DNA of 64,000 bases from Oceanotoga teriensis (GTDB lineage: Bacteria > Thermotogota > Thermotogae > Petrotogales > Petrotogaceae): contig NZ_QGGI01000003.1 of assembly GCF_003148465.1 (NCBI RefSeq), positions 91,940 to 155,939 of the forward strand. The letters run 5' to 3'. A program made the position numbers and the translations under genes. The first letter of the stretch is position 1, and every line of letters starts with the position of its first letter. Below, piece after piece: positions 9,860-61,158 of the stretch. The notes beneath the pieces are model-generated. The model saw only the letters and a list, made by a program, of their open reading frames with translations. It did not search any database and was not told where the DNA came from.

Positions 9860-10030
9860 CCTCCTTTTCTCAGCTATTAGGCAGATTACTCTCACCAAAG
9901 CTAAAGAAAAGGATATCTCTACTTTGGTGACAGCGGACGCGATGTCGAACCGCAGCCATTTAAGGGCATTTCGTCACAGGGCAACGTCCCATCCCTGAGC
10001 ACTAAAACGCATGACATCTACTCTGCCACA
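9860..10030 (-). ncRNA. THF (tetrahydrofolate) riboswitch; aptamer about 9926-10030 plus an RBS-sequestering expression platform
   Basis: GC-rich island on the minus strand that matches the E. siraeum THF aptamer almost block for block (AGUAGAUG...GCGUUUUAGUG...GGGAUGGG...ACGAA...GCGG...CAUCGCGUCCGCU); downstream UCCUUUUCU can pair with GAGAAAAGGAGG at the folT RBS. Confidence 0.8.
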
Positions 10031-41479: not shown

Positions 41480-42388
41480 TTAAAGGTTTTTTAATACTAT
41501 TTCACCAACATTAACACCAAGAACATCTGCTATAGTTTTGCATTTTGCCATTAATATATAAAAAATATTTCCATTTTCAAATTCAAGTCCTTCAAAATTA
41601 CCTTGTCCTTTTGAAATTATAACATCTGAATTATCAAAAATATTTTTAAAAGCAGTATTTACATTAGATAAAATAGTTCCAGGATATATAGAACCACTTT
41701 CAATTGGAATTGAAACTTCTTTCAAATTTATCTCTTCTGTATCTTTTAAAGTAGCATCATTTATTATTGGAGTACTTCTGACTGCTGAATGAATCATTAA
41801 ATCTGGGTACTTATCTTTTATCACCTTTATTAGTATCTTGTCAAGTACAATTTCGCCAGCATTATCATGAATAAATAGCAATGAATTTGCATTTTTTAAT
41901 TTTTCATCTAAAATATCAAAATCATTAATACTAAATTCTCTGTTTTTTGTTAAATTTTCTATTTCCCACTCTAGTTCTCCAAAAGAATTTTTTATGCCAT
42001 AATCTATAAGATTTCCCACTGCAGATAATTTTGTGGCAAGTTTTATAGGATTTTTACTATTTCTACAAAATTCTAATAAATCATCATACATTTCAAGAAA
42101 AATTTGATTAGAATTAGTTTTTTCATTTTCATAATAATCCCTTTTCCCAAATAACTCATAAAATTTATCATACATATTTAAAGATATTTCAATGGGTTTT
42201 AAACCATAAAAAGAATTATCTACAACACTTTTTAAAATATCTTTATAAGCATTAAATAGCTCTTCTTCAGTATAATCATTTATTTTTTTTACTTTATTGA
42301 TTAAATTAAGTCCATTTTTGGCGACACAGTTTAAACACTCATAACTTGCTTTCATAAAAAACACGCTCCTAATATTATTATATAACAT
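41480..42388 (-). CDS. DUF89-family protein (ARMT1-like; tentative)
   Basis: DNAGE-containing core; N-terminal CxxC. Confidence 0.4.
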   Translation of the reverse strand: MLYNNIRSVFFMKASYECLNCVAKNGLNLINKVKKINDYTEEELFNAYKDILKSVVDNSFYGLKPIEISLNMYDKFYELFGKRDYYENEKTNSNQIFLEMYDDLLEFCRNSKNPIKLATKLSAVGNLIDYGIKNSFGELEWEIENLTKNREFSINDFDILDEKLKNANSLLFIHDNAGEIVLDKILIKVIKDKYPDLMIHSAVRSTPIINDATLKDTEEINLKEVSIPIESGSIYPGTILSNVNTAFKNIFDNSDVIISKGQGNFEGLEFENGNIFYILMAKCKTIADVLGVNVGEIVLKNL

Positions 42389-42593
42389 TATTATATAATA
42401 TATAAATTAAATTAAGTTTTGTTATTATTATTGTTATTAAATCTTTATGTTAAAAATATCTTTCTATTGAGACGCTTTTCATACATACTTTTAACAGAAA
42501 AACAATAAATTTTTTCTATACTTTTTACGGTATAATGTGATATAATAATTTGGTTTGATGTTTATTTCAAATCATTATTGTTACTTATATTTA

Positions 42594-55034: not shown

Positions 55035-55854
55035 AACCGGATCTTTATATATAGAAAAAACTTCTTTTATACATAATTTAAATGGTGCTGTAAAACTTTT
55101 GCTCTTAATATGTTGGACTGTTTTTATATTTTTATTTATGGACTTAAGAGTCTTTTTGAGTATGATAATTATAGGGTTTATATTATTAAAAATGGCACAA
55201 ATACCTTTTAAAAAGATAAAAACTTTAATTTGGTTTGTTGTTATTTTTACTATATTTAATTCTATATTTCTCTTACTTATAACTCCAGAGTACGGGTCTG
55301 AACTTGCTGGTACTTATAGTACTTTTTTTGAAATTGGAAATTTAAATATAACTTATGAAACTCTATTTTTTTCTTTAACTTTATCTTTAAAATATTTGTC
55401 TATATTACCAATTACATTACTTTTTCTTTTTACAACTCATCCAAGCGAATTTGCAAGTAGCTTAAATAAAATAGGAATACCATATAAAGTAGCTTATGCA
55501 GTTAATATAGCTTTAAGATATATACCGGATGTAACAGATGAAATGAAAAATATAATAAATGCTCAAGAAGCAAGAGGTGTTTGTTTTAATAAAAAAGATG
55601 CGGGGATATTCAAAAGATTAAAAAATTATGTCACTATTTTAATACCTCTTTTAATATCTTCATTAAACAGAGTTGAAATTGTTTCGAATGCTATGGATTT
55701 AAGGGGGTTTGGAAGATATAAAAAAAGAACTTGGTATCATCAAAAAACTTTTTCGATCATAGACTTTTTATTTTTAATGATATCTTTTGGCATGATAATA
55801 GTTGGAATATACTTGAAAAATACATTATTAAAAAATTTTTGGTATCCTTTTTGA
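55027..55854 (+). CDS. ECF transporter T component (EcfT/CbiQ family)
   Basis: two ARG coupling motifs (AQEARGV, AMDLRGF). Confidence 0.75.
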   Translation: MNRTGSLYIEKTSFIHNLNGAVKLLLLICWTVFIFLFMDLRVFLSMIIIGFILLKMAQIPFKKIKTLIWFVVIFTIFNSIFLLLITPEYGSELAGTYSTFFEIGNLNITYETLFFSLTLSLKYLSILPITLLFLFTTHPSEFASSLNKIGIPYKVAYAVNIALRYIPDVTDEMKNIINAQEARGVCFNKKDAGIFKRLKNYVTILIPLLISSLNRVEIVSNAMDLRGFGRYKKRTWYHQKTFSIIDFLFLMISFGMIIVGIYLKNTLLKNFWYPF

Positions 55855-55981
55855 TTTTAAGGTTATTTTAAATTAAATTTTATTAAAATCTAAGCTTTAT
55901 TTTAGAATAATTTAAGCCTTCGTAAATAAAATATAATTATGTTTTTAACTTATATTTTATTATTTTATGGAGGTGTTTACT

Positions 55982-56410
55982 ATGAAAAAAACAGTTACAA
56001 CTTTTTTATGCCTTATGTCTTTAGGAATGTTGATTTTTGCAGGTACTTTTAGTACTAAAAATGATCCATTAGAAGAATCACCAAAAGATTTTGAGTTTGA
56101 TTATCAAATGAACTCAGAATTGCAAGCAACAAAAAATGAGAATGGAGAGTTTGAATTTGAAGGGAAAATCTTGAGTATTTCTGAAAAACCAAATGAATTG
56201 GGTTATTATGAATTAGTTTTAGAATATATAGTATCGACTAATGAAGAAAATAACCCTACAGAAAAAATAGCTGTAGTTTTGAATGATTTTGGGAATAATA
56301 TAAAAGATTTAGTTTCAGAACAGAGAATACATGTGATTGCTTATGAAAAAGAGCAAGATGAGAAAAAAATTTTAATTTTAAAAGAAATAAGTATAATTGA
56401 AGAAGAATAA
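55982..56410 (+). CDS. hypothetical secreted or lipoprotein
   Basis: signal peptide MKKTVTTFLCLMSLGMLIFAG; acidic mature part. Confidence 0.35.
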   Translation: MKKTVTTFLCLMSLGMLIFAGTFSTKNDPLEESPKDFEFDYQMNSELQATKNENGEFEFEGKILSISEKPNELGYYELVLEYIVSTNEENNPTEKIAVVLNDFGNNIKDLVSEQRIHVIAYEKEQDEKKILILKEISIIEEE

Positions 56411-56422
56411 ATAAAAAAATGG

Positions 56423-56448
56423 AGCGGGTAATAATATACTCGCTCCAA
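56423..56448. terminator. bidirectional hairpin; on the minus strand it is followed by a U-run and terminates tRNA-Glu
   Basis: GGAGCGGGUAAUAAUAUACUCGCUCC. Confidence 0.6.
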
Positions 56449-56471
56449 ACAAACACTTATTTGTATGTTTT

Positions 56472-56546
56472 ATGGCAGCCCCACGGGGAATCGAACCCCG
56501 ACTCTCGGACTGAGAATCCGATGGACTGGCCGTTATCCTATGGGGC
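56472..56546 (-). tRNA. tRNA-Glu (anticodon CUC), CCA encoded
   Basis: manual cloverleaf: acceptor GGCCCCA/UGGGGCU, anticodon stem UCGGA/UCCGA, loop UUCUCAG, T-arm CGGGG-UUCGAUU-CCCCG, discriminator G, CCA. Confidence 0.8.
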
Positions 56547-56622
56547 CATAACAAGAGATATTATACCATTCTTTTTTAGTTTTGTAAATACTTTTTTTGA
56601 AAACTTTATGCAAAAATAATAT

Positions 56623-56651
56623 TTGACATATAAATTTTATTTTGATATAAT
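56623..56651 (+). promoter_or_regulatory. perfect sigma70 consensus promoter (TTGACA, 17-nt spacer, TATAAT)
   Basis: exact hexamers with a 17-nt spacer, about 45 nt upstream of the leader-peptide start. Confidence 0.6.
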
Positions 56652-56698
56652 GGTTTTAATTCAAAAAAGTCAATTATTCTTAATTAAAGGTGATTAAT

Positions 56699-56794
56699 AT
56701 GAAAAAACTTTCAATTTCAATAAATAACTTTTTAATTCAACAATTAAATAATAATAATAATAATAATATGAACAGCGTCGGGATTTTACGCTGA
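56699..56794 (+). CDS. candidate leader peptide MKKLSISINNFLIQQLNNNNNNNMNSVGILR (10 Asn of 31 residues, 7 consecutive AAU codons)
   Basis: AAAGGTGA RBS 7 nt before the ATG; ORF ends 19 nt before a strong terminator and 72 nt before asnA. Confidence 0.55.
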   Translation: MKKLSISINNFLIQQLNNNNNNNMNSVGILR

Positions 56795-56812
56795 TTTTTT
56801 GCGTATAAAAAT

Positions 56813-56843
56813 TAACCGACGCTTATTAGCGTCGGTTTTTTTT
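56813..56843 (+). terminator. attenuator terminator upstream of asnA
   Basis: AACCGACGC-UUAUUA-GCGUCGGUU followed by U7; the 5' arm is also complementary to AGCGUCGG (56773-56780) inside the leader ORF. Confidence 0.65.
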
Positions 56844-56865
56844 TATTAAATTAGGAGGGAAAATT

Positions 56866-57819
56866 ATGAAAAGATTAGAAGAGAGAGTTGTAGATACTAT
56901 TGATTTGGTTGATACTTATATCAGTGATGAATTTTATTCTGATTTATTAACTATTCAATCTGTAATATTGAGGAAAACAAGAGATGTAATGTATTCTAAA
57001 GGATTTACAGAAATTCTTCCTGTAATAATATCCCCAATAACAGATCCATTAAATCATGAAATTTTTGATGCGAGTATAGAATATTATGATCAAAAATATT
57101 CTATAACGAAATCTATGATTCTTCATAAGCAAGTTAGTACACTTGTACATAAAAAGATATTCTGTATGTCTCCAAATATAAGACTTGAAATTGAAGATAA
57201 ATATGAAAGTGGAAGGCATCTTTATGAATTTGTACAACTTGATATGGAAGTTAGAGAAGCTAAGAGAGAAGATATTATGGATATAATGGAGGATTTGATA
57301 ATTGAAACAATAGATTATATAAAATGTAACTATTCAAATCTTATCAAGAAGTATAATGAAACTTTAGAAGTACCAAAAAAGAATTTTAAAAAAATAAAAG
57401 TAAAAGAAGCTTTAAAAAAATATGGTAAAGATTATGAAAAAATTCTTTCAGAAAAAGAAGGAGCTCCTTTTTGGCTTATAGATTTACCTTTATTAGATAG
57501 AGAATTTTATGATAAACAAAACAAAAAAGATCCAGAATATCTTTTAGATTTTGATTTAATATATCCAAAAGGATTTGGTGAAGCAATCTCTGGAGGAGAG
57601 AGAGAACATGAATATAAACAAATATTAAGTAGAATGAGATTAAAAGGTAATTCAGAAAAAAGTTTTGAAGAATATTTAAAAATCGCAAAAAAAGGACTTC
57701 TAAAAGAATCTGCTGGATGTGGTCTTGGCATAGAGAGATTTACAAGGTATATTTTAGGACTAAAACATGTTGAAAAAGCAAGAATGTTTGCCAAGGCACC
57801 GGGGAAAATATCTATATAA
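56866..57819 (+). CDS. asnA: aspartate--ammonia ligase, archaeal-type asparagine synthetase A (AsnRS-core paralog)
   Basis: close motif-by-motif match to the Pyrococcus AsnA pattern (LSPITDPL, SMILHKQ, SPNIRLE, GRHxYEFxQLD, PFWLIDxPxxxREFYD, SGGEREHEY, SAGxGLGIERF). Confidence 0.8.
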   Translation: MKRLEERVVDTIDLVDTYISDEFYSDLLTIQSVILRKTRDVMYSKGFTEILPVIISPITDPLNHEIFDASIEYYDQKYSITKSMILHKQVSTLVHKKIFCMSPNIRLEIEDKYESGRHLYEFVQLDMEVREAKREDIMDIMEDLIIETIDYIKCNYSNLIKKYNETLEVPKKNFKKIKVKEALKKYGKDYEKILSEKEGAPFWLIDLPLLDREFYDKQNKKDPEYLLDFDLIYPKGFGEAISGGEREHEYKQILSRMRLKGNSEKSFEEYLKIAKKGLLKESAGCGLGIERFTRYILGLKHVEKARMFAKAPGKISI

Positions 57820-57832
57820 AGGATGGTGAAGC

Positions 57833-59158
57833 ATGGAGAAAGAACAACTTTTAGAATATGTTAAAAGTCAAGGTATAAAATTTATAAGACTTCAGGTTAC
57901 AGATATTAATGGAATGCTAAAAAACGTTGAAGTTCCTTCTTCAAGACTTGAACAAGTTATAAAAGATGGAACTATGTTTGATGGTTCTTCTATAGAGGGA
58001 TTAGCAAGGATAGATGAATCTGATATGATATTAAAACCTGATTTAAATACTTTTACTATTTTACCTTGGACAGTTGAAAGGGGAAAAGTTGGAAGACTTA
58101 TATGTGATGTTTATACTACTACTGGTAAACCTTTTGAAGGGGATTCAAGATATATATTGAAAAAAGTTGTCAAAAAACTTGAAGAAAAAGGTTATACAGG
58201 ATATTGTGGGCCTGAACCCGAATTTTTTCTTTTACCAAAAGACGAAAAAAACAAGCAAATTAAACTTGAATTTTTGGATGAAGGAGGATATTTTGATCTT
58301 TTACCAGTAGATCTTGGTGAAGAAACAAGAAAATCAATAGTGAATGCTTTACAAGTTATGGGATTAAAAGTAGAAGCTTCTCATCATGAAGTAGCACCAT
58401 CACAACATGAGATTGATTTTCAATATGATGATCTTATAAGTACAGCAGATAACATACAAACTTTTAAACTTGTTGTTAAAACGATGGCTCTTATAAGAGG
58501 GTTACACGCTACATTTATGCCTAAACCATTTCCTATGGTGAATGGTTCTGGAATGCATGCAAATACAAGTTTATTTAAAGAAGATAAAAATATTTTCTTC
58601 AATAAAGATGGAGATTATCAACTTTCACAGGAATTGAGGTATTTTGTTGGAGGTGTAATAAAACATATACCAGCTATTACCGCAATTGCAAATCCTACTA
58701 TAAATTCTTATAAGAGATTAATACCAGGATATGAAGCACCTGTTAATGTAGCATGGTCTGTTTCGAATAGAAGTGCTTTAATAAGAGTTCCCGCAGCAAG
58801 AGGTAAAGGAACAAGAGCAGAATTAAGAAGTCCAGATCCAACTTCTAACCCATATCTTTTACTTGCTGTAATATTTGGATGTGGATTAAAAGGAATAGAA
58901 GAAAAAATAACTCCTCCAGATCCTGTTATTGAAGATATATACTCAATGGATAATAACAGAAAGATAGACCTGGGAATCGGCAAATTGCCAGGTTCTTTGA
59001 AGGAGTCATTAAATGAATTAAAAAGAGATAATTTTGTAAGAGAAATTATTGGTGAACATATATATAAGACTTTCATAAGTATTAAAGAAAAAGAAATCGA
59101 GTGTTTTAAAGTTCATGTTACCGATTGGGAAATAGACCAGTATTTGAAATTATATTAA
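57833..59158 (+). CDS. glnA: glutamine synthetase type I
   Basis: 441 aa; GS catalytic motifs (GPEPEFF, HHEVAPSQHE, NPYL). Confidence 0.9.
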   Translation: MEKEQLLEYVKSQGIKFIRLQVTDINGMLKNVEVPSSRLEQVIKDGTMFDGSSIEGLARIDESDMILKPDLNTFTILPWTVERGKVGRLICDVYTTTGKPFEGDSRYILKKVVKKLEEKGYTGYCGPEPEFFLLPKDEKNKQIKLEFLDEGGYFDLLPVDLGEETRKSIVNALQVMGLKVEASHHEVAPSQHEIDFQYDDLISTADNIQTFKLVVKTMALIRGLHATFMPKPFPMVNGSGMHANTSLFKEDKNIFFNKDGDYQLSQELRYFVGGVIKHIPAITAIANPTINSYKRLIPGYEAPVNVAWSVSNRSALIRVPAARGKGTRAELRSPDPTSNPYLLLAVIFGCGLKGIEEKITPPDPVIEDIYSMDNNRKIDLGIGKLPGSLKESLNELKRDNFVREIIGEHIYKTFISIKEKEIECFKVHVTDWEIDQYLKLY

Positions 59159-59162
59159 AAAT

Positions 59163-59197
59163 AAAGACATTTTGCAAATGCAAAATGTCTTTATTTT
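59163..59197 (+). terminator. terminator after glnA
   Basis: AAAGACAUUUUGCAAAUGCAAAAUGUCUUU followed by AUUUUUUU. Confidence 0.7.
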
Positions 59198-59514
59198 TTT
59201 AACTTATTTAAAGGGGAAGAGGTTTCTTTTGGTTCTTCTGCTATCAATTCTGGATTAAATAGTATATATATAAAAAAATCAAAATTCTTAATTATTTTTT
59301 TCATATTATTACCTCCTTTTAATGTTCATTTATATTTTAACAATTTTAATGTATTTTAGAAATTTAAAGTTATTACATTTAGAAATTAAAACTTACATGT
59401 ATGTAAGTTAAGGTAATTTATTATGTATTAATTCTAACAATATTTTTCTGTAATGAATATTAACAAATAGAGTGGTAAAATAATATTATAAGAATTATAT
59501 TTGGGAGGATTTTT

Positions 59515-60981
59515 ATGAATATAAAAAGAGCTATAATTTCAGTATATGATAAAACTGGATTAGAAAAACTTGCAAAATTTCTTAAAGCAAACGATGTTGA
59601 AATAATATCTACTGGTGGAACTGCTGAATATTTAAATAGTATAGGAATTTCTGTGACTAAAATGTCTGAATATACTGACTTTCCAGAAATATTGGGAGGC
59701 AGAGTTAAAAGTTTACATCCTAAATTATTTGGAGGAATTCTTGGAGAAGTTGGAAATAAAGAACATGAAGAACAATGTGATAATTTAGGTATAAAAAGAG
59801 TAGACCTTGTTGTAGTTAATTTATATCCATTTGATGAAATCGCTAAAAATACAACTATAGAAAAAGAACTTTTAAATTATATTGATATAGGTGGACTTGC
59901 AATGATAAGAGCTGCAGCAAAAAATTATAGAGATGTTGTACCTCTTGTTGATCCAGAAGATTATGAAGATATAATAGAATCTATTGAAGAATGTGGAGAT
60001 GTACCTTTACATAATAGAAGAAAATTATCTTTAAAAGCATTTTATACCACATCTAAATATGACTCAAATATTCATAAAGTGTTTAGTGAACTTTTTGCTT
60101 CTGAAAAATTTGATCATGAATTTTTTGAAATAGGTGGAATGTTGAGATATGGTTCTAATCCACTTCAAGAAGCTACACTCATGAAATTTTCAGGTGGAGA
60201 AAGTATTTTTGATCATATGGAAAATATGACAAAATTTAAATCTCCAACCCTTAGGATAATAAAAGATATAAAAAAATTATTCAAATTAGTTAGCAAAACG
60301 AATAGAGAAATAATAGCTTTTTCAAAGAAAGGAATTATTGTATTTGCTTATATAGATCCATCAGAAAAAGACTTGGAAGAATTTTTTAAACATATAAATA
60401 AATTGAGGGGTGGAGTATTATATACCGATAGTTTAGATATAATAAAAAAATTAAAAAACAATATGATAGATTGTATTTTAACTACGGCAGATATAAATCA
60501 AGAAGATCTTTTATCATACAAATCTATGGTATTCAAAATGGATAGATTTGATATGTCCTTTGATCAAGAATATATTATAGACGAAGATATAGTTATAAAA
60601 CAAGAATATAAAAATTTAATAATTGATTCAGACGATTATTCGAAATTAGCTTTTGAAATTGCTAAAATGCATAAATCAGATTCAATCGTATATTTAAAAG
60701 GAAATAGAATTTATTCTGGAAATCAAAGTTCATTAAATAGAATGATAGCTTTAAACACCTTAGAATACGTGTTAAATGCTTTTGATGAAAATTTAAATAC
60801 TGGAACTATGATTTTTGATTCACCAATTAATGATGAAAGAATAATAAAAAAATTAGAAGACTGGAATATTAATGAATTGATAGTTCCACCGCCATTACCT
60901 AAAGATAAACAATATTTAGAAACTTTAAAACAAAAAGGTTTTAAGATAATTGTAACGCCTAATAGATATCATAAGTATTGA
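59515..60981 (+). CDS. purH: bifunctional AICAR transformylase / IMP cyclohydrolase (short form)
   Basis: N-terminal MGS-like IMPCH domain (ISVYDKTGL, STGGTA, HPKLFGGIL); the LRYGSNPLQ motif corresponds to AICARFT LRYGENPHQ; the C-terminal part is divergent. Confidence 0.6.
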   Translation: MNIKRAIISVYDKTGLEKLAKFLKANDVEIISTGGTAEYLNSIGISVTKMSEYTDFPEILGGRVKSLHPKLFGGILGEVGNKEHEEQCDNLGIKRVDLVVVNLYPFDEIAKNTTIEKELLNYIDIGGLAMIRAAAKNYRDVVPLVDPEDYEDIIESIEECGDVPLHNRRKLSLKAFYTTSKYDSNIHKVFSELFASEKFDHEFFEIGGMLRYGSNPLQEATLMKFSGGESIFDHMENMTKFKSPTLRIIKDIKKLFKLVSKTNREIIAFSKKGIIVFAYIDPSEKDLEEFFKHINKLRGGVLYTDSLDIIKKLKNNMIDCILTTADINQEDLLSYKSMVFKMDRFDMSFDQEYIIDEDIVIKQEYKNLIIDSDDYSKLAFEIAKMHKSDSIVYLKGNRIYSGNQSSLNRMIALNTLEYVLNAFDENLNTGTMIFDSPINDERIIKKLEDWNINELIVPPPLPKDKQYLETLKQKGFKIIVTPNRYHKY

Positions 60982-61002: not shown

Positions 61003-61114
61003 AATTCTTTTTGGGACTACACGTGGCTGGGTCCTGCGCAACGAAAACTAGTGAAACTGGTCAGGCCCGGAAGGGAGCAGCCATAAGCTTTGTCTTTTGT
61101 GTGCCGCAGGGAAG
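61003..61114 (+). ncRNA. ffs: signal recognition particle RNA (small bacterial SRP RNA / 4.5S)
   Basis: GC-rich island; conserved domain IV sequence GUCAGGCCCGGAAGGGAGCAGCC; terminal helix GUGGCUG/CAGCCAC; ends in a U-run. Confidence 0.75.
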
Positions 61115-61158
61115 CTCAGCCACCTTTTTTTATATATTTTATTATGAGGGGGAATAAA

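Follow-up and report, generated by a model that had tools for sequence, protein, structure and literature searches.

How is asnA controlled in Oceanotoga teriensis (Thermotogota, Petrotogaceae), where this gene of an archaeal-type asparagine synthetase, with glnA behind it, is preceded by a short open reading frame (ORF) that holds seven asparagine (Asn) codons in a row and is followed by an intrinsic terminator? The locus lies in the stretch of 64,000 nucleotides (nt) analysed here, hereafter the window, which has a GC content of about 27%. The product of its asnA is 100% identical to a protein of Oceanotoga sp. DSM 15011. An earlier note on this DNA had proposed ribosome-mediated attenuation keyed to the supply of Asn-tRNA, and this proposal is supported by the sequence, by comparison with related loci and by RNA folding. 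We put the probability that the element is an Asn-responsive, ribosome-mediated (leader-peptide) transcription attenuator of asnA-glnA at roughly 0.85.

The features of the locus are collected in Table 1. The promoter, described as perfect in the earlier note, matched the sigma-70 consensus at 12 of 12 positions and scored highest among the 21 promoter-like sites in 55800-59600; transcription is predicted to start near 56658. The leader ORF lies near this promoter and 71 nt from asnA. It has its own Shine-Dalgarno (SD) sequence and AUG, both of which are kept in the relatives, where GGUG or GGAG motifs stand at the equivalent place before the leader AUG. The sequence confirmed the 31 codons, the ribosome-binding site, the UGA stop, the seven AAU codons and the total of 10 Asn codons, the remaining ones being codons 9 and 10 (56723-28) and codon 25 (AAC, 56771-73). 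With 10 Asn in 31 codons, 7 of them consecutive, the ORF is enriched in codons for the product of the enzyme encoded behind it. The strong terminator with a U7 tract that had been placed between leader and asnA was also found, with a stem of 10 bp, six G-C pairs and a free energy of -16.1 kcal/mol. The distance of 22 nt given for the terminator and the asnA SD sequence had to be corrected: the stem ends 16 nt before GGAGG.

The 3' part of the leader ORF can pair in two ways, both of which had been seen in the earlier note. The first pairing joins the segment AGCGUCGG, whose sequence had been read correctly and whose position is 56774-81 rather than 56773-80, to CCGACGCU in the 5' arm of the terminator. 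It forms the core of a conserved 18-bp antiterminator, above which GAUUU (56782-86) pairs with AAAUU (56809-13) and UACGC (56787-91) with GCGUA (56801-05). When the 3' arm of the terminator was absent, the antiterminator was the minimum free energy (MFE) structure of 56740-56826, at -20.0 kcal/mol; the duplex had a free energy of -16.2 and a z-score of -6.0, and none of 200 shuffles equalled it. The second pairing, with ACGCUG (56788-93), is a small hairpin of -6.9 kcal/mol, called A:B here. In the model, A:B would engage the antiterminator strand transiently, as a decoy, and it may also act as a pause hairpin. Its 9-nt loop, CGGGAUUUU, is complementary to the part of the antiterminator 3' strand that is made first (AAAUU, 56809-13, and CCG, 56816-18), and therefore strand displacement is favoured. 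A pairing of B with the 3' arm of the terminator was considered as an alternative antiterminator and rejected, since it comprises 5-6 bp compared with the 10-bp local hairpin, the 5' arm of which is transcribed first.

These parts suggest the following scheme. RNA polymerase would start near 56658 and the leader ORF would be translated from 56699, and the last six sense codons (56774-56791) would provide the 5' strand of the antiterminator that sequesters the terminator 5' arm (56816-23). When Asn-tRNA(Asn) is plentiful, the ribosome would pass the seven AAU codons, reach the UGA at 56792 and cover the antiterminator strand while the polymerase makes 56814-56844; the terminator would then form, and a leader RNA of about 185 nt would be released. 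When Asn-tRNA(Asn) is scarce, the ribosome would wait at the early AAU codons and leave the antiterminator strand exposed, so that the terminator 5' arm would be captured once CCG (56816-18) emerges and the polymerase would read into asnA and glnA. Expression in vivo would thus depend on Asn.

In the folding of the growing transcript, the MFE structure was A:B as far as 56817. The antiterminator replaced it with the emergence of CCG and remained the MFE structure for 56818-56834, and from 56835 on the terminator was favoured. The barrier for refolding from antiterminator to terminator was about 8 kcal/mol. The leader was also folded with and without a ribosome mask, in which all nucleotides of the footprint (-15 to +12 nt relative to the first A-site nucleotide) were barred from pairing; this model is thermodynamic and its footprint is assumed. 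Masked folding gave the antiterminator at the early codons of the run and its loss toward the stop codon. The probability of the antiterminator was 0.98 without a ribosome and with the A site at codon 21 or earlier, 0.87 at Asn codon 22 and about 0.45 at Asn codon 23; for codons 24-31 it was 0, and with the ribosome at the stop codon it was 0.02-0.07. Setting the 3' edge of the footprint at +9 or +15 moved the result by one codon, and temperatures of 37, 55 and 65 °C had nearly no effect. The earlier note had raised the objection that a ribosome stalled late in the run would cover the antiterminator strand. This is true of the last codon of the run and of the isolated Asn codon 25, but not of the first five or six AAU codons, at which the strand is free. 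In the model the objection dissolves, five or six of the seven codons of the run being productive stall sites.

The Asn run is unlikely to be a product of chance. A single (AAT)7 is present in the window, and none of 100 shuffles contained one. Asn accounts for 6.6% of the residues of the long ORFs of the window, where the longest Asn run among 16,593 residues is 3, and at this background the probability of at least 10 Asn in 31 codons is 2e-5. One other run, the non-coding AATAACAATAATAATAAC, (AAY)6, stands on the minus strand at 42421-42438, where an AT-rich spacer precedes a 302-aa ORF (41480-42388, minus). It was rejected as a second leader, as it has an in-frame stop two codons upstream and no start codon, ORF or terminator. 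It serves as a negative control, indicating that AAY runs can exist outside leaders. Because of it the Asn run alone is not decisive, and it is the conserved context that decides.

To evaluate this context, 80 genome loci (L001-L080) and 80 metagenome loci encoding AsnA relatives, the best matches listed, were compared, and loci of Geotoga, Petrotoga, Marinitoga, Kosmotoga olearia, Tepiditoga and Defluviitoga-like bacteria were taken individually. The 450 nt upstream of asnA were scanned for Asn-dense frames. Among the matches listed, the best 10-codon window held 4-9 Asn in bacterial loci compared with 2-4 in archaeal loci. Asn-run leader ORFs were found upstream of AsnRS-like asnA in at least 37 bacterial loci of L001-L080 (28 Thermotogota, 3 Caldisericota and 6 of Aminicenantes type) and in every Petrotogaceae or Kosmotoga locus taken individually, and the metagenome scan gave about nine further close relatives among the matches listed. 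Overall, such a leader precedes asnA in at least about 45 bacterial loci, which belong to Thermotogota, Caldisericota and Aminicenantes-type metagenome-assembled genomes (MAGs). None was found in the roughly 29 archaeal loci among the matches listed, many of which are equally AT-rich. In the earlier note, orthologous leaders without an Asn-rich ORF or terminator were to count against the proposal; the comparison did not refute it, as bacterial orthologues carry the Asn-rich ORF together with a terminator. The N-terminal parts of the peptides differ between clades, and the Asn run is the sole part conserved across them; the C-terminal tails (SVGILR, QRR, SIDIGRLG, PFDIGRWG, GPGSVGPLFL and WPGSVG) track the GC-rich RNA segment of each clade and show no peptide motif.

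A hairpin with a U-rich tract followed all 40 leaders analysed, 30 of them by automatic scan and 10 placed or re-bounded by hand; the U tract is interrupted in several, e.g., UUUAAUUUU. Across 15 Petrotogaceae-type leaders, the terminator helix was 93% paired and 7 of its 11 pairs showed compensatory changes, which none of 500 shuffles matched. The antiterminator duplex, in which the part of the leader that separates the Asn run from the stop codon pairs with the terminator 5' arm and a few preceding nucleotides, was likewise present in 40 of 40 leaders, with free energies of -15 to -27 kcal/mol and z-scores of -3 to -8, and 0-2 of 200 shuffles were as good. The start of its 5' segment is offset from the Asn block by 10 nt at most (range -5 to +10, and +6 to +10 for the classical layout described below), and the segment usually ends within about 13 nt of the leader stop codon. 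The paired sequences vary by clade with their complementarity kept, as in AGCGUCGG:CCGACGCU, CAUCGGUCGGUUGGGU:ACCCAAAGGGCCGAUG and GACCGGCCUGUCUUU:AAAGACAGGCCGGU. Within the Petrotogaceae, the antiterminator core was 86% paired compared with 20-55% out of register. At one site the terminator arm has G or A and its 3' partner covaries as C or U, and the antiterminator strand has a constant U that pairs with both. The MAFFT alignment misplaced a 1-nt bulge in Geotoga and misaligned L096, and the alignment-free duplex tests were relied on instead. These results indicate that the parts of the leader and their complementarities exist and are conserved.

The same mask model was then applied to the 40 leaders and scored by the probabilities of specific pairs. 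Another metric, which counted the terminator arm as paired with anything, was dropped since it was confounded by local pairings. At the best Asn-codon position the median probability of the antiterminator was 0.99, and 39 of the 40 leaders reached at least 0.5. In most leaders this probability dropped to about 0 within one to three codons past the Asn block, and its median at the stop codon was 0. In the model, the position of the ribosome would therefore select the antiterminator or the terminator, both in the window and in 39 of the 40 leaders.

According to the local folds, the relatives have two layouts. The classical 1:2/2:3/3:4 layout was found in Mesoaciditogaceae, Athalassotoga, Kosmotogaceae MAGs and Caldisericum, where the antiterminator strand is first held by a 5'-side partner that begins at the last Asn codon; the protector hairpins have -7 to -36 kcal/mol, mostly -11 to -23. 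In the Petrotogaceae, K. olearia and the window, the strand pairs locally with a 3'-side partner, located in what will become the antiterminator loop. The 3'-side hairpin of Petrotoga, Defluviitoga-like and L099-type leaders reaches into the Asn codons (AACAAU/AUUGUU) and has -14 to -20 kcal/mol, and untranslated leaders of this kind should terminate. It is weak in Oceanotoga, Geotoga and Tepiditoga (-4 to -9 kcal/mol), and their untranslated leaders should read through. For the window, the model makes such a 'default-ON' logic fairly probable; many relatives, in which the protector hairpin is strong, should instead terminate if no ribosome translates the leader. In the Petrotogaceae-type leaders inspected, a U-rich stretch (UGUUUUU or UGAUUUUUU) follows the 3'-side hairpin; that it acts in polymerase pausing is speculation.

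The strongest rival explanation assigns the classical three-state trp-type logic to the window as well: A:B would be a true protector, the untranslated leader would terminate, and a stalled ribosome would free the antiterminator. About a quarter of the relatives do behave in this way in the model. Ten leaders (L083, L099, L002, L011, L012, L008, L009, L023, L047 and L016), with protector hairpins of -13.5 to -36 kcal/mol, had antiterminator probabilities of at most about 0.25 without a ribosome and mostly of at least 0.9 with a ribosome on an Asn codon. Moreover, A:B is the MFE structure of the window transcript until 56817. However, A:B in the window has only -6.9 compared with -20.0 kcal/mol for the antiterminator, the complementarity of its loop favours strand displacement, and the probability of 0.98 without a ribosome also speaks against a protector. 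In addition, B lies 3' of the antiterminator strand, so that a ribosome arriving from 5' would have to mask A as well in order to mask B. We consider the protector role of A:B unlikely, and default-ON attenuation remains the preferred logic for the window.

Several points weigh against Asn-responsive attenuation. At equilibrium with the 3' arm present, the terminator won (probability 0.99) even with the antiterminator strand free. The choice would therefore have to be made kinetically, as in all attenuators, and the scheme needs the antiterminator to be trapped behind an estimated barrier of about 8 kcal/mol, which is modest. A stall on the last AAU codon or on Asn codon 25 would favour termination, and a ribosome at the stop codon re-exposed part of the strand in 10 of the 40 leaders, those with long tails. 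Covariation of the antiterminator core was weak: most changes affected one side (U:G to U:A), and its score was reached in 29 of 500 shuffles. A stricter duplex test, based on pairs outside the terminator stem, was significant in 13 of the 40 leaders, largely not those of Petrotogaceae, and thereby supports the pairing in part. The leader was lacking at L013, at the high-GC Bipolaricaulota-type asnA loci and at six Caldisericales loci, in which asnA lies inside an operon and another ORF runs directly into it. Furthermore, the scheme presupposes that tRNA(Asn) is charged directly from free Asn through the asparaginyl-tRNA synthetase (AsnRS).

A second rival explanation retains the coupling to translation and gives up the specificity for Asn, so that the antiterminator would be exposed whenever the leading ribosome slows down, and the Asn codons would be there by accident, as AT-rich filler. 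The architecture indeed responds to ribosome position generally, and the run at 42421-38 (minus) indicates that AAY runs arise in non-coding DNA of a genome with 27% GC. In contrast, Asn runs are retained across upstream regions of 25% to 45% GC, and AAU as well as AAC is used; an SD sequence and an in-frame AUG precede every run, and asnA always follows. The AT-rich upstream regions of archaeal asnA among the matches listed have no Asn runs, and the background probability of 2e-5 also contradicts mere filler. This explanation is very improbable. A trans-acting factor (an RNA-binding protein, a tRNA or a small ligand) that controls or bypasses the terminator, with the short ORF not being the sensor, is less probable still. 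The conserved GC-rich leader segments could be binding sites for it, but no T-box, riboswitch or other Rfam family matched 55800-57400 even at E <= 10, apart from the sub-threshold matches given below, and the conserved set (SD sequence, AUG, in-frame Asn run and a stop where the antiterminator strand ends) is that of a leader-peptide attenuator. Hardly credible is a functional small peptide followed by a constitutive leaky terminator that insulates asnA: the peptides of Petrotogaceae share a loosely similar N-terminus, MK-x-(L/F)-S, but across clades nothing of the peptide is conserved except the Asn run, the tails follow the RNA arm, and no queried leader peptide had been called as a protein.

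Other arrangements were observed at some asnA loci. Six Aminicenantes-type loci (L028, L044, L052, L054, L059 and L076) have leader ORFs 60-190 nt upstream of asnA that end in NNNN-VPF. Directly after their Asn run follows a hairpin, GUCCCCUU-CUAA-AAGGGGAC, with the stop codon in its loop, and no terminator comes after it. In the MFE structure of L044 a CCUCCU-like anti-SD sequence inside the leader ORF pairs with the asnA SD sequence, and a similar 5' leader segment pairs in this way in L076. Possibly, the Aminicenantes-type leaders work as the same Asn sensor at the level of translation. Six metagenome loci (L126, L130, L134, L150, L153 and L163; about 30% GC, AsnA 44-45% identical) have a conserved TTGACA promoter and then a very short upstream ORF (uORF) ending in (T)NNNS(N), which in L153 consists of MNNNSN alone, without an apparent terminator. 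Four of the six uORFs stop about 20-25 nt short of the asnA start, and the called ORF reaches or enters the asnA start in L130, L150 and L163. These 'NNNSN' mini-uORFs, like the Aminicenantes-type leaders, may be terminator-less versions that act on translation. A third leader type was seen in L042, L100 and L104 (...SNNNP...NPNAPFGANN-stop); its Asn codons lie at two places including the ORF end, and a GCCCC-UUCG-GGGGC hairpin is located within the ORF.

Leader-peptide attenuation is textbook knowledge for Trp, His, Phe, Leu, Thr and the branched-chain amino acids. In hisL of Salmonella and E. coli (Rfam His_leader, RF00514), a short ORF with seven consecutive cognate codons, a terminator and mutually exclusive pairings convert the charging of tRNA into a ribosome position. 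The hisL leader is the closest analogue in design, as both it and the Oceanotoga leader have seven cognate codons in a row. They differ in the amino acid (Asn instead of His) and in the host phyla, there is no detectable homology in sequence or structure and no Rfam match, and the decoy partner in the window sits within the antiterminator loop, on the 3' and not the 5' side of the antiterminator strand. The leaders of Mesoaciditogaceae, Athalassotoga, Kosmotogaceae MAGs and Caldisericum resemble trpL (Rfam Trp_leader), with region 1 at or just after the last Asn codon and region 2 of these classical-layout leaders pairing with the terminator 5' arm. In contrast, the window and the other Petrotogaceae have no 5'-side region 1, and the untranslated leader of the window is predicted to read through and not to super-attenuate.

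Asn genes are known to be controlled in other ways. In Firmicutes, T-box leaders control asnA and asnS, sensing the charging of tRNA-Asn by direct binding between tRNA and leader RNA. The Oceanotoga leader would share with them the tRNA-Asn charging signal and the choice between terminator and antiterminator upstream of Asn genes, whereas its sensing would occur through the translating ribosome. E. coli asnA is controlled by the protein AsnC, a transcription factor that acts at the promoter. The outcome, an asparagine-responsive ammonia-dependent asparagine synthetase, would be alike, and the switch in Oceanotoga would instead consist of RNA and the ribosome.

No Rfam family reached threshold in the leader region (searches of 55800-57400 at E <= 10 and of the entire window with gathering thresholds), and the T-box covariance model gave no match in 55800-57400 at E <= 10. 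The only match to a leader family was Thr_leader, with 20.4 bits compared with a gathering score of 55 (E 0.61); this and the sub-threshold matches to STnc240 and STnc370 were rejected, as they merely reflect the terminator hairpin. The earlier note knew of no Asn-codon leader for asnA, and likewise we found no Asn-specific leader in Rfam 15 or in the openly searchable full-text literature, a scope outside of which lies the subscription-only literature, where an earlier description is possible. A genome-wide survey of attenuators (PMC2965389), a survey of leader genes (PMC4833913) and a discovery paper on non-coding RNAs and uORFs that includes Thermotogae (PMC8632094) contain no Asn leader. 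Comparative genomics has recently added Cys to the amino acids concerned, with a uORF with Cys codons before cysS in Rhodobacterales and polycysteine uORFs in mycobacteria (PMC8632094; bioRxiv 10.1101/834739). These are amino-acid-specific attenuator uORFs like the Oceanotoga leader, unlike it in amino acid, genes and taxa, and Asn is not mentioned in either report.

The Oceanotoga element thus appears to be an Asn-specific attenuator of known mechanism, conserved in three phyla and apparently unreported. We lean slightly toward a broader view, namely that it belongs to the first recognised family of Asn-specific attenuators, which act on an archaeal-type (possibly archaeal-origin) asnA in at least three bacterial phyla and have trp-like as well as permuted 'default-ON' layouts. 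If so, leader-peptide attenuators would gain a new amino-acid specificity, and classical attenuation would extend to deep-branching, mostly thermophilic phyla. The evolution of attenuator logic, with a protector hairpin or without one, could be studied on at least about 45 natural variants of two topologies, and the family would possibly be a case of a bacterial regulatory device placed on an archaeal-type enzyme gene. Annotation would also benefit: the leader ORFs are currently uncalled, because none of the ten peptides queried was called as a protein in a collection of 15 billion proteins. In practical terms the gain is modest, since mechanisms of this kind are already known.

Table 1. Position of the promoter, leader elements and downstream genes of the asnA locus in the window.
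Feature	Position	Strand	Details
Sigma-70-type promoter	56623..56651	+	TTGACA 56623-28, 17-nt spacer, TATAAT 56646-51; extended -10 TG (TGaTATAAT)
Leader SD sequence, AGGUGA	56688..56693	+	5 nt 5' of the AUG at 56699
Leader ORF, 31 codons and UGA stop (56792-94)	56699..56794	+	peptide MKKLSISINNFLIQQLNNNNNNNMNSVGILR
Seven consecutive AAU (Asn) codons, proposed sensor	56747..56767	+	same position as the Asn runs of orthologous leaders
Small leader hairpin A:B, CAGCGU (56773-78)/ACGCUG (56788-93)	56773..56793	+	-6.9 kcal/mol; followed by AUUUUUU
Antiterminator 5' strand, leader codons 26-31	56774..56791	+	core AGCGUCGG (56774-81) pairs with CCGACGCU (56816-23)
3' strands of the two upper antiterminator helices	56801..56813	+	GCGUA (56801-05), AAAUU (56809-13)
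Intrinsic terminator hairpin	56814..56837	+	5' arm AACCGACGCU (56814-23), loop UAUU, 3' arm AGCGUCGGUU (56828-37)
U7 tract of the terminator	56838..56844	+	read from the sequence
asnA SD sequence, GGAGG	56854..56858	+	read from the sequence
asnA, AsnRS-like (archaeal-type) asparagine synthetase A	56866..57819	+	AUG at 56866; NF005054, PF00152, 1nnh/3p8t
glnA, type I glutamine synthetase	57833..59158	+	TIGR00653, 546 bits; 13 nt after asnA

The identification of an archaeal-type asparagine synthetase gene with glnA behind the leader was borne out by profile and structure matches. The 317-aa product of asnA scored 418.5 bits against NCBIfam NF005054 'asparagine synthetase A' (cutoff 309) and also matched PF00152. 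It aligned to the catalytic core alone of the AsnRS and AspRS profiles, that is, to a class II aminoacyl-tRNA synthetase core without the anticodon-binding domain, and its best relatives in the PDB were the archaeal asparagine synthetases A 1nnh and 3p8t. From the spacing of 13 nt, asnA and glnA are presumably co-transcribed. A 10/12 promoter-like site at 57725-53, within asnA, could drive glnA separately.

The order of genes after asnA varies among the loci. It is asnA-glnA-purH in the window (57833-60981 for the latter two) and asnA-glnA in Tepiditoga (L088) and L174, and purH follows directly after asnA in the Petrotoga and Defluviitoga-like loci (L083, L089). Because of this variation, glnA may have entered, or left, the Asn-controlled unit. 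The PurH-like ORF of the window (488 aa, 59515-60981) matched the PurH profile over its first 260 or so residues, with a score of 268.7 compared with the NCBIfam cutoff of 402, and the purH orthologues of L083 and L089 have both the MGS and the AICARFT_IMPCHas Pfam domains.

On the other side of the leader promoter, a tRNA-Glu(CUC) gene (56473-56547, minus) has its own 11/12 promoter (56588-56560), divergent from that of the leader. Read by eye, the hairpin GGAGCG (56421-26)/CGCTCC (56441-46) with a T-run on the minus strand resembles the terminator of this tRNA gene. Elsewhere in the window, Rfam models matched a tetrahydrofolate (THF) riboswitch aptamer at 9929-10027 on the minus strand (61 bits, gathering score 36) and a bacterial small signal recognition particle (SRP) RNA at 61025-61124 on the plus strand (72.9 bits).

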